DNA of 64,000 nucleotides from Escherichia coli (GTDB lineage: Bacteria > Pseudomonadota > Gammaproteobacteria > Enterobacterales > Enterobacteriaceae): NCBI RefSeq assembly GCF_003018255.1, contig NZ_CP027440.1, one strand, 5' to 3'. Below the pieces are notes generated by a model. It did not search any database, was not told the DNA's origin, and saw only the letters and a list, made by a program, of their open reading frames with translations. Positions 56,103-58,608 of the stretch are shown piece after piece. The stretch's first letter is position 1. Each line of letters starts with the position of its first letter. A program made the position numbers and the translations under genes.

Positions 56103-57401
56103 ATGACACTCACGCTCAATAGACAACTTCTCTCCTCACGCCAGATTCTGGTGGCCTTTAGCGGCGGGCTTGACTCCACCGTTCTGCTGCATCAGTTGGT
56201 GCAGTGGCGGATGGAAAATCCGGGCGTCACTCTGCGCGCTATCCATGTGCATCACGGTTTAAGTGCTAATGCCGATGCCTGGGTTAGGCATTGCGAGAAC
56301 ATCTGCCAACAGTGGCAGGTGCCGCTGGTGGTCGAGCGCGTGCAACTTGCGCAAGAAGGACTGGGCATTGAGGCCCAGGCGCGGCAGGCACGTTATCAGG
56401 CATTTGCCCGCACCTTGTTACCCGGTGAAGTGCTGGTCACCGCGCAACATCTCGACGATCAATGTGAAACCTTTCTGCTGGCGCTAAAACGCGGTAGCGG
56501 CCCTGCCGGGCTTTCGGCTATGGGGGAAGTTTCGGAGTTTGCCGGAACACGGCTTATCCGCCCGTTGCTCGCCCGCACGCGGGGAGAACTGGTGCAGTGG
56601 GCGCGTCAGTATGATTTACGCTGGATTGAAGACGAAAGTAATCAGGATGATAGCTACGATCGTAACTTCCTGCGCCTGCGCGTGGTGCCGTTATTGCAGC
56701 AGCGTTGGCCGCATTTTGCCGAAGCAACGGCCCGCAGCGCTGCGCTTTGCGCTGAACAAGAGAGCCTGTTGGATGAACTGCTGGCGGATGATATAGCACA
56801 CTGTCAAACGTCGCAGGGGACGCTGCAGATTGCGCCAATGCTGGCGATGAGTGATGCCCGCCGCGCGGCGATTATCCGCCGCTGGCTGGCAGGGAAGAAT
56901 GCACCGATGCCTTCCCGCGACGCGTTGGTGAGGATCTGGCAGGAAGTGGCGCTGGCGCGGGAAGATGCTTCCCCCTGTTTACGCCTGGGCGCGTTTGAAA
57001 TCCGCCGCTATCAGTCGCAACTGTGGTGGATTAAATCCGTCACTGGGCAAAGCGAAACCATTGTGCCGTGGCAGACGTGGCTACAACCGCTGGAATTACC
57101 GGCGGGACTGGGAAGTGTACAGCTTACTGCGGGAGGCGATATTCGCCCTCCGCGTGCAGACGAAGCGGTCAGCGTGCGTTTCAAAGCGCCAGGATTGCTG
57201 CATATTATCGGGCGCAACGGCGGACGTAAGCTGAAGAAAATCTGGCAAGAGCTGGGTGTGCCGCCGTGGCTACGTGACACCACGCCACTGCTGTTTTATG
57301 GCGAAACGTTGATTGCGGCGGCAGGGGTATTTGTGACGCAAGAAGGTGTGGCTGAAGGTGAGAATGGCGTCAGTTTTGTCTGGCAGAAAACGCTTAGTTA
57401 A
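56103..57401 (+). CDS. tilS: tRNA(Ile)-lysidine synthetase
   Basis: ORF track 56103..57401 (+), 432 aa; PP-loop SGGLDS. Confidence 0.93.
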
Positions 57402-57407
57402 GTGAAA

Positions 57408-57440
57408 GCCGGATAAGACGCTTCAAACGTCGCATCCGGC
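57408..57440. repeat. REP-like palindromic unit (minus-strand reading gccggatgcgacg-tttgaag-cgtcttatccggc) between convergent tilS and rof
   Basis: Read from sequence; matches the general REP pattern GCCGGATG...CTTATCCGGC. Confidence 0.5.
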
Positions 57441-57449
57441 GAAAGTCAA

Positions 57450-57704
57450 TCAGGACTCGCTCACCACCACCGTACCGATTTCCGGGTGGCTAAAGCTGGT
57501 AATTTTATCCAGACGCAGCTCGCGGGTTGTACCAGCGGCCTCGACGACCAGATACTCCACATTTTTGCGGGAGACTAAATCGCTGGCCTTCGCCTGCAAT
57601 TTTTCGCCATCTTTCAGCTCAAGTGTCAGCATTAAATGATGCTGGCAGGCGAGCTCAAGATTATCGTAATCATCACAATTGATTGGTTGATACGTATCAT
57701 TCAT
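57450..57704 (-). CDS. rof: Rho-specific inhibitor of transcription termination (Rof/YaeO)
   Basis: ORF track 57450..57710 (-); start at second ATG ([23 protein letters not shown]..., 84 aa). Confidence 0.88.
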
Positions 57705-57897
57705 TGACATAATCGCTCACCAGTAAGTTTGCCGCAGCGTATGCTGCTTTTTCCCTGACAGCCTCAGAAAGGGCGTCGTCGGCAGCCATTTCATTCAGCA
57801 CTTTCAAAACGCAGCCCAGCGCGTCCGGAACGTATCCTAAGTCTCCGCTGGCGATTTCCGCGTACCGCTTGCGTATTAACTCACAATATTTTTCCAC
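57697..57897 (-). CDS. yaeP: Small conserved protein of unknown function (UPF0253 family)
   Basis: ORF track 57697..57915 (-); start tentatively at the GTG giving [24 protein letters not shown]... (66 aa); 8-nt overlap with rof start. Confidence 0.75.
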
Positions 57898-58062
57898 ATG
57901 CCCTCCTGTCAGCACTCTGACTTAACCGTGGATGCAAGTCTAAGCCTACGAAGATAAACTCTGTTTCGCAAGGTGACTATACCACACTCATTTCTGCAAT
58001 ATCAGCGCCGCAACTGCACGTATTCCGTTACAATGGCCTCCTGATTCGAAAGGAGTTTTCTT

Positions 58063-58608
58063 ATGGCGCTTAAAGCGACAATTTATAAAGCGACGGTTAA
58101 TGTGGCCGATCTCGACCGCAACCAGTTTCTCGATGCCTCTCTGACGCTGGCGCGCCACCCTTCAGAAACCCAGGAGCGCATGATGCTGCGCCTGCTGGCG
58201 TGGCTGAAATATGCTGATGAACGTCTGCAATTTACCCGCGGTTTGTGTGCCGATGATGAGCCGGAAGCGTGGCTGCGTAACGATCATTTGGGCATTGATT
58301 TGTGGATTGAACTGGGGCTGCCGGATGAGCGGCGGATTAAGAAAGCCTGCACCCAGGCCGCAGATGTGGCACTGTTTGCCTATAATAGTCGGGCGGCGCA
58401 AATCTGGTGGCAGCAAAATCAGAGCAAATGTGCGCAGTTTGCCAATCTTTCCATCTGGTATCTGGACGATGAACAACTGGCGAAAGTAAGCGCCTTTGCC
58501 GATCGTACCATGACGCTGCAGGCAACGATTCAGGATGGCGTGATCTGGTTATCGGATGATAAGAATAATCTGGAAGTGAACTTAACCGCCTGGCAACAAC
58601 CTTCATGA
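58063..58608 (+). CDS. yaeQ: YaeQ family protein (function unknown)
   Basis: ORF track 58063..58608 (+), 181 aa. Confidence 0.88.

Follow-up and report, generated by a model that had tools for sequence, protein, structure and literature searches.

The genes yaeP and rof (yaeO) of Escherichia coli overlap on the minus strand, and the nucleotides at their junction are almost invariant among species. From the conservation of the overlap and of this junction, it is quite probable that the two genes form a two-gene Enterobacterales operon, in which both would be carried by a single transcript and the synthesis of Rof would be tied to the translation of yaeP by re-initiation. The initial annotation had already claimed co-transcription and translational coupling from the overlap. 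The anatomy of the locus fits this claim, to which can now be added one conserved putative extended -10 promoter, no internal promoter-like site, no canonical SD for rof and the near-invariant junction. The conserved overlap and junction therefore support, as far as sequence comparison can, co-transcription and coupled translation. The overlap and the likely coupled translation of yaeP-rof are already published (PMC11018626, Fig. 1e/8e; PMC9765468). Although correctly observed, the overlap is an ordinary trait of a textbook genome, and the coupling proposed from it appears reasonable and is common to the literature.

The window (the whole stretch of 64,000 nucleotides that was analysed) is 100% identical, from 57300 to 58100, to the chromosome of E. 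coli strain 7/2, and the yaeP-rof region was found in 5424 of the 5426 complete E. coli genomes. According to the RefSeq annotation of the identical stretch, the gene order is tilS (+), then rof and yaeP (-), then yaeQ, arfB and nlpE (+), with 261 nt for rof, 201 nt for yaeP and 14 nt for their overlap. The features of the locus are listed in Table 1. Two minus-strand ORFs can be read directly from the letters: 57450..57710 (86 aa, MSMNDTY...) and 57697..57915 (72 aa when counted from its first in-frame GTG). The end coordinate 57915 that had been proposed for the yaeP-rof pair has to be abandoned: it is merely an upstream in-frame GTG of the mechanical ORF and lies upstream of the SD, the actual start being the GTG at 57897-57895. 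The length of 66 aa given earlier for YaeP is right, from the GTG at 57897 to the TGA at 57699-57697. This start codon is GTG in 85/87 loci and ATG in the other two (2/87). An out-of-frame mini-ORF of 7 codons, MWKNIVS*, begins at the AUG of the AUGUG sequence (57895-57899, minus strand). The AUGUG start of yaeP has been tabulated, without being predicted as ambiguous, in a study that gives an abundance of 94.5 ppm for YaeP (PMC9841429).

Table 1. Coordinates of the features of the yaeP-rof locus (positions in the window)
Feature	Position	Strand	Description
rof CDS, 86-aa form	57450..57710	-	ATG 57710-57708; alternative 84-aa start ATG 57704-57702
yaeP CDS	57697..57897	-	66 aa; GTG start within AUGUG; TGA stop 57699-57697; Pfam/NCBIfam and RefSeq
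Near-invariant 30-nt junction block	57697..57726	-	TTACTGGTGAGCGATTATGTCAATGAATGA; SD-like GGTGA 57721-57717, both rof ATGs, yaeP stop
Weak predicted hairpin	57684..57722	-	SD-like element and ATG1 paired with codons 4-9 of rof; ATG2 in loop
yaeP 5' leader	57898..57970	-	Motif AGAGTTTATCTTCGTAGGCTTA 57962-57941; SD AGGAGG 57907-57902
Putative yaeP-rof promoter	57976..58005	-	-35-like CTGATA 58005-58000; 18-nt spacer; extended -10 TGgTATAGT 57984-57976; consensus scan
REP-type palindrome	57408..57440	.	Between convergent rof and tilS; -21.5 kcal/mol, z -5.2; sub-threshold Rfam naRNA4/REP match

Both gene products are clear members of their families. YaeP matches PF06786 (UPF0253) with 116.3 bits for a cut-off of 27, over residues 1-65 of 65, and the NCBIfam equivalog NF003436 with 137.4 bits (cut-off 99). 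Rof (YaeO) matches PF07073 (98.7 bits, cut-off 27.6) and the equivalog NF008636 (181 bits, cut-off 117, positions 1-86 of 86). It aligns over its full length, with one substitution, with the solved structures 1SG5, 8W8D and 8PTM, and keeps the four Rho-contacting residues of the N-terminal helix (C10, Y13, D14 and E17 in the 84-aa numbering; 4/4). The substitution affects residue 61 of the 86-aa form (57528-57530, minus strand), which is Thr (AAGTTREL) here versus Glu (AAGETREL) in K-12 and all PDB entries; it is located in a variable loop, near a site that tolerates an HA tag. The locus, gene order, overlap and REP elements are the same as those of the K-12 yaeP-rof (yaeO) operon (PMC11018626, PMC9765468, Pichoff et al. 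1998). In this non-K-12 strain, YaeP is identical to that of K-12 and Rof differs by one residue, and nothing is different in kind.

The length of the overlap depends on the start codon of rof. It is 8 nt (ATGAATGA, 57704-57697) with the ATG at 57704, which gives the 84-aa protein of the K-12 annotation (MNDTY...), and 14 nt with the ATG at 57710, which gives the 86-aa protein called by RefSeq/PGAP and described by NF008636 (86 positions). Hence, the overlap of 8 nt on the minus strand that had been claimed does exist, but this length holds only for the 84-aa start, the overlap from 57710 being 14 nt. RefSeq calls the 86-aa form here (14 nt), whereas K-12/UniProt and Fig. 1e of PMC11018626 use the 84-aa form (8 nt). 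Two possible rof starts are mentioned by Said et al. (PMC11018626), and solved Rof structures correspond to both forms, with 86 residues for 1SG5 and 8PTM and 84 for 8W8D. Both start codons fall within the last five codons of yaeP.

A scan in which each species was represented by one genome retrieved at least 518 loci encoding YaeP relatives, the best 80 being all from Enterobacteriaceae. In these best 80 loci and the window, i.e. in 81/81 Enterobacteriaceae sequences, rof follows yaeP with the same geometry, which was also found in Serratia, Yersinia, Pectobacterium, Pantoea and Lonsdalea. The same stop-start geometry is thus present in 87/87 loci from four Enterobacterales families: both genes lie on the same strand, with an overlap of 8 or 14 nt that places the downstream start inside or abutting the upstream stop. 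The overlap of Lonsdalea reaches 17 nt because its YaeP is one residue longer. The ATG equivalent to 57710 (ATG1) is present in 87/87 loci, whereas the one equivalent to 57704 (ATG2) is present in 84/87, being replaced by ACG in two Enterobacteriaceae (L012 and L020) and by ATA in Pantoea. Therefore, the conserved start is that of the 86-aa form and the conserved overlap is 14 nt. Judging from these codons, the 84-aa start cannot be the sole start, although it may also be in use.

Short same-strand overlaps are common; for instance, yaeQ and arfB, 900 bp away, overlap by 4 nt. Therefore, the yaeP/rof overlap alone is not beyond chance, but its conservation is. The yaeQ/arfB overlap (ATGA, 58605-58608, plus strand), also mentioned by Said et al. 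(PMC11018626), belongs to the same divergent locus, on the other strand. Since arfB is virtually devoid of an SD (dG -1.5 kcal/mol), these two genes constitute a second putative coupled pair.

Conservation at the yaeP/rof junction extends well beyond the amino acid level. In a 79-species alignment, each column of the 30-nt block is at least 90% conserved, synonymous sites included, and two runs are fully invariant, 57726-57706 (21 nt) and 57702-57697 (6 nt). The entropy at the third codon position is 0 bits for eight of the last nine sense codons of yaeP and 0.17 bits for the other in these 79 species. By comparison, this entropy averages 0.92 bits over codons 2-55 of yaeP and 1.06 bits over codons 6-86 of rof, and only 3% of the other third positions show no variation. 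According to this alignment, the junction is under strong selection at the nucleotide level. Dual coding accounts for the last 14 nt of the block only. The 16 nt upstream of ATG1 cannot code for rof, because a TGA is present in the rof frame 6 nt before ATG1 (9 nt start-to-start). Furthermore, the antisense frames contain stops, and dual coding was rejected as the cause of the invariance of 57726-57711.

This upstream part of the block includes GGUGA (57721-57717), located 6 nt from ATG1, that pairs with UCACC of the 3' tail of 16S rRNA. In the study of Said et al. 2024 (PMC11018626), rof is described as devoid of an SD and as overlapping yaeP by 8 nt. The absence of an SD is true for the canonical core only, since an invariant non-canonical SD-like element is present. 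The calculated SD strength of rof is -2.8 kcal/mol with the 9-nt anti-SD versus -7.6 kcal/mol with the 13-nt 16S tail via GGUGA; for comparison, the values are -10.8 kcal/mol for yaeP, whose AGGAGG is located 4 nt before the GTG start, and -8.2 kcal/mol for yaeQ (AAGGAG), arfB being the weakest. A promoter-like site found on the other strand (57672-57700, plus) was discarded, as its -10 overlaps variable rof codons and is probably a chance match.

Upstream of yaeP, the extended -10 of the putative promoter (TGnTATAGT) is kept in six genera from four Enterobacterales families: E. coli, Serratia, Yersinia, Pectobacterium, Pantoea and Lonsdalea. From the start of yaeP to that of rof (57897-57710), the consensus scan revealed no minus-strand promoter-like site; it returned a weak terminator-like site inside yaeP (57829-57815) that is probably a chance match. 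The versions of the -10 found in Yersinia, Pectobacterium and Lonsdalea are TGCTATAGT. They resemble the sigma-S -10 consensus with a C at -13; such a sigma-S-like -10 would fit the reported stationary-phase expression of rof. About 10-30 nt downstream of the predicted TSS (near 57969), the leader carries the motif AGAGTTTATCTTCGTAGGCTTA, which is common to E. coli, Yersinia and Pectobacterium and partly kept in Lonsdalea. The leader does not fold better than shuffled sequences (z 0.14), and comparison with Yersinia and Pectobacterium revealed no conserved pairing partner for the motif. An 8-bp stem of the E. coli leader (CUUGCGAA/UUCGUAGG) is not kept in Yersinia and Pectobacterium; therefore, the conservation of the leader is at the level of sequence and not of structure. 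The motif may be an operator or an RNA-binding site. The Rfam scan of 57300-58150 returned only sub-threshold REP/naRNA4 matches and miRNA noise, and no family for the leader or the junction. At the other end of the locus, the REP-type palindrome likely constitutes the 3' end or a stabiliser of the yaeP-rof transcript. Said et al. (PMC11018626) described REP elements on both sides of the locus.

Classical coupled pairs, such as trpE-trpD, trpB-trpA and galT-galK, use termination-reinitiation at overlapping stop and start codons. Like them, yaeP and rof show a same-strand overlap, a weak or absent downstream SD and an SD-like element in the upstream ORF, and the downstream output would be expected to be a set fraction of the upstream output. 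Unlike them, yaeP-rof has an overlap of 8-14 nt instead of the usual 1 or 4 nt and two in-frame starts, and its coupling is putative. On this basis, we infer that yaeP and rof are transcribed from the single extended -10 promoter, the transcript probably ending at the REP hairpin before tilS. Translation of yaeP would be efficiently initiated, owing to its AGGAGG SD and GTG start. Ribosomes translating yaeP to its UGA would open the junction, and the same ribosomes or their 30S subunits would then re-initiate 8-14 nt upstream, by termination-reinitiation or facilitated initiation. This would occur most likely at the AUG at 57710 (86-aa Rof), possibly also at 57704, with the help of the invariant GGUGA 6 nt upstream. 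Through such re-initiation, Rof synthesis would be tied to yaeP translation and Rof output would be a small, fixed fraction of it. The low and fixed Rof:YaeP ratio would keep a growth-inhibiting Rho antagonist scarce.

Several published data bear on this scheme. Overproduction of Rof is toxic, and the level of Rof in the cell is low (PMC11018626, PMC9765468). In Enterobacteriaceae, according to Said et al., rof "always overlaps" yaeP; Morita et al. 2022 (PMC9765468) suggested that yaeP may modulate rof expression. The source data of PMC11018626 include a Western blot of yaeP+rof, yaeP-deltaATG+rof, rof[84aa] and rof[86aa], the outcome of which is not described in the text. In line with the scheme, our comparison also provides a contrasting case: a stand-alone rof paralogue carried by plasmids, separated from the preceding gene by 66 nt, has a purine-rich SD of its own (-9.0 kcal/mol).

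Alternatively, the overlap might be an incidental result of genome compaction, rof being initiated independently at GGUGA and its AUG and the translation of yaeP being irrelevant. The pairing of GGUGA with 16S rRNA is comparable to that of a working SD and about as strong as that of the canonical yaeQ SD (-7.6 vs -8.2 kcal/mol), so that rof could initiate on its own; this speaks against the coupling scheme. Moreover, overlaps such as that of yaeQ/arfB are common, and functional Rof is obtained from vector signals in the absence of yaeP (PMC9765468, PMC11018626). However, an incidental overlap would be expected to drift, whereas the stop-start geometry is fixed over four families and the invariance spans the yaeP stop and both AUGs, beyond the SD-like element. 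Furthermore, the rof start lies within the footprint of a terminating ribosome, which makes independence mechanically unlikely. We therefore consider incidental compaction unlikely. The main role of the 30-nt junction might also be to bind, or to act as a structural switch for, a trans-acting regulator (sRNA, RNA-binding protein or conserved hairpin) that gates rof under stress, the overlap being secondary; this would be compatible with coupled translation. The invariance that continues for 16 nt ahead of ATG1, beyond the dual-coding part, points in this direction, as do a hairpin able to sequester GGUGA and ATG1 and the reported rise of rof expression in slow growth or stationary phase (PMC11018626, PMC9765468). 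However, this hairpin is weak: its MFE is -9.6 kcal/mol in E. coli (54-nt segment) and ranges from -3.7 to -9.6 kcal/mol between species, its register shifts, and it is not conserved across families, since it is not the MFE fold in Serratia, Yersinia and Lonsdalea. Its two arms are near-invariant, so covariation is uninformative, and we did not adopt it as a mechanism. In addition, the Rfam scan gave no match and no candidate regulator was found, all of which makes a regulator site quite unlikely as the primary role of the junction.

The initial annotation had also put forward that YaeP acts in Rho regulation. This could be imagined in several ways, YaeP binding Rof or Rho, neutralising or chaperoning Rof as an antitoxin would, or tuning termination. 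The linkage with rof is tight and invariant across Enterobacterales, and a small upstream gene that overlaps a downstream gene, the product of which inhibits growth when overproduced, resembles a type II toxin-antitoxin pair. Furthermore, the published tests cover overexpression, one terminator and standard media only (PMC9765468). In these tests, however, IPTG-driven YaeP alone changed neither the colony phenotype nor readthrough of the SgrS terminator, whereas Rof did (PMC9765468), and rof alone gives the antitermination phenotype (Morita et al., PMC9765468). Rof phenotypes persist with plasmids that carry both yaeP and rof (including those of PMC9765468); therefore, YaeP does not neutralise Rof. 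We also modelled a YaeP-(GGGGS)6-Rof fusion with AlphaFold2 from a 42-row paired alignment. This crude model (single chain, no PAE, shallow alignment) showed no sign of docking, with a pTM of 0.40 and a mean pLDDT of 66. The confidence of YaeP fell below that of YaeP modelled alone instead of rising, and the linker and the N-terminus of Rof had a pLDDT below 50.

The comparison with type II toxin-antitoxin operons does not go further than gene arrangement: neither the fusion model, crude as it is, nor the yaeP+rof plasmids give any sign of YaeP binding to Rof or neutralising it, co-inheritance of the two genes stops at Enterobacterales, and Rof is a regulator with a defined target and not a member of a toxin family. 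Joint inheritance is indeed contradicted on both sides, by YaeP without rof at loci L082, L085 and L087-L092 and by rof without yaeP on IncHI2 plasmids and in Vibrio (PMC11018626). In V. cholerae, yaeP and rof are on different chromosomes (PMC11018626). Psu of phage P4 and the kinase YihE are, like Rof, direct protein antagonists of Rho, but they have unrelated folds and binding modes and neither is linked to a YaeP-like gene. A full-text literature search for yaeP and UPF0253 returned no function assigned to YaeP, and a 2025 review of Rho regulators, which covers Rof, did not appear among the papers that this search retrieved for yaeP. Hence, the proposed role of YaeP in Rho regulation is unsupported and, as a partner in the Rof-Rho pathway, YaeP is very unlikely, although this negative evidence is weak and stress-specific conditions are outside its reach.

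A further scheme brings together the junction (57726-57697) and the leader motif (57962-57941) as a stress-specific translational or transcriptional switch that would release Rof, the translation of yaeP or YaeP itself being the sensor. For instance, if translation of yaeP were stalled or absent, Rho could gain access to the operon, with a feedback between Rof and Rho via polarity on the rof mRNA. Such a switch would explain the extreme synonymous constraint better than simple coupling, but it seems very unlikely to us. Coupled translation of a single yaeP-rof transcript remains the preferred reading.

YaeP itself is best viewed as an independent small dimeric three-helix protein with no demonstrated part in the Rof-Rho pathway. 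Its AlphaFold2 model (pLDDT 91) has three helices and fits the fold of PDB 5H1N, i.e. the structure of the Shigella flexneri YaeP protein SF173, reported to be a dimer that forms a helical bundle. A fold search with this model retrieved only this crystal structure, the other matches being generic helices. The family is very small, with 36 clusters at 50% identity among 1.84 billion representatives. In the contexts examined and in PMC11018626, the yaeP-rof linkage is confined to Enterobacterales; elsewhere, YaeP homologues adjoin unrelated genes. In a Vibrio-like sequence (L082:3001-3398, near proS), a YaeP homologue with 57% identity overlaps, via TAATG, a 63-aa DUF4250 gene and not rof. Therefore, in this sequence YaeP is the first partner of another overlapping pair. 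No structure has been solved for DUF4250, which gives no functional lead for YaeP by association. Other distant yaeP genes are located after sulA, an M20 peptidase gene or an ABC transporter gene, or before a MatE gene. For instance, in a 2.39-Mb genome (CP133959.1, L085:3001-3210), a homologue with 52% identity and no adjacent rof starts 3 nt after an ABC-2 transporter permease gene.

Conversely, rof paralogues without yaeP are carried by large conjugative IncHI2A plasmids of Enterobacter and Citrobacter, and 59 plasmid records have a match with less than 60% identity. The one located on an IncHI2A plasmid of Enterobacter hormaechei (NZ_AP025868.1, L097:3001-3285) encodes a 94-aa protein with 37% identity to Rof (PF07073, 101 bits). 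It lies downstream of a gene encoding a glutaredoxin domain and has its own SD, and Y13 of the Rho-contact helix is replaced by His. A plasmid-borne Rho antagonist could counter the silencing of foreign DNA by Rho.

The overlap with yaeP is an obvious control point for Rof, already described and under study by the groups that solved the Rho-Rof structures. Our analysis brings useful, minor refinements: the 86-aa start and 14-nt overlap are universally conserved, an invariant non-canonical SD-like element precedes rof, and the junction is under strong nucleotide-level selection. These three refinements point experimenters to the bases worth mutating. Few cellular proteins can switch off Rho, which is essential, and Rof is one of them. 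Therefore, the control of Rof output matters for stress survival and for the virulence of Salmonella.
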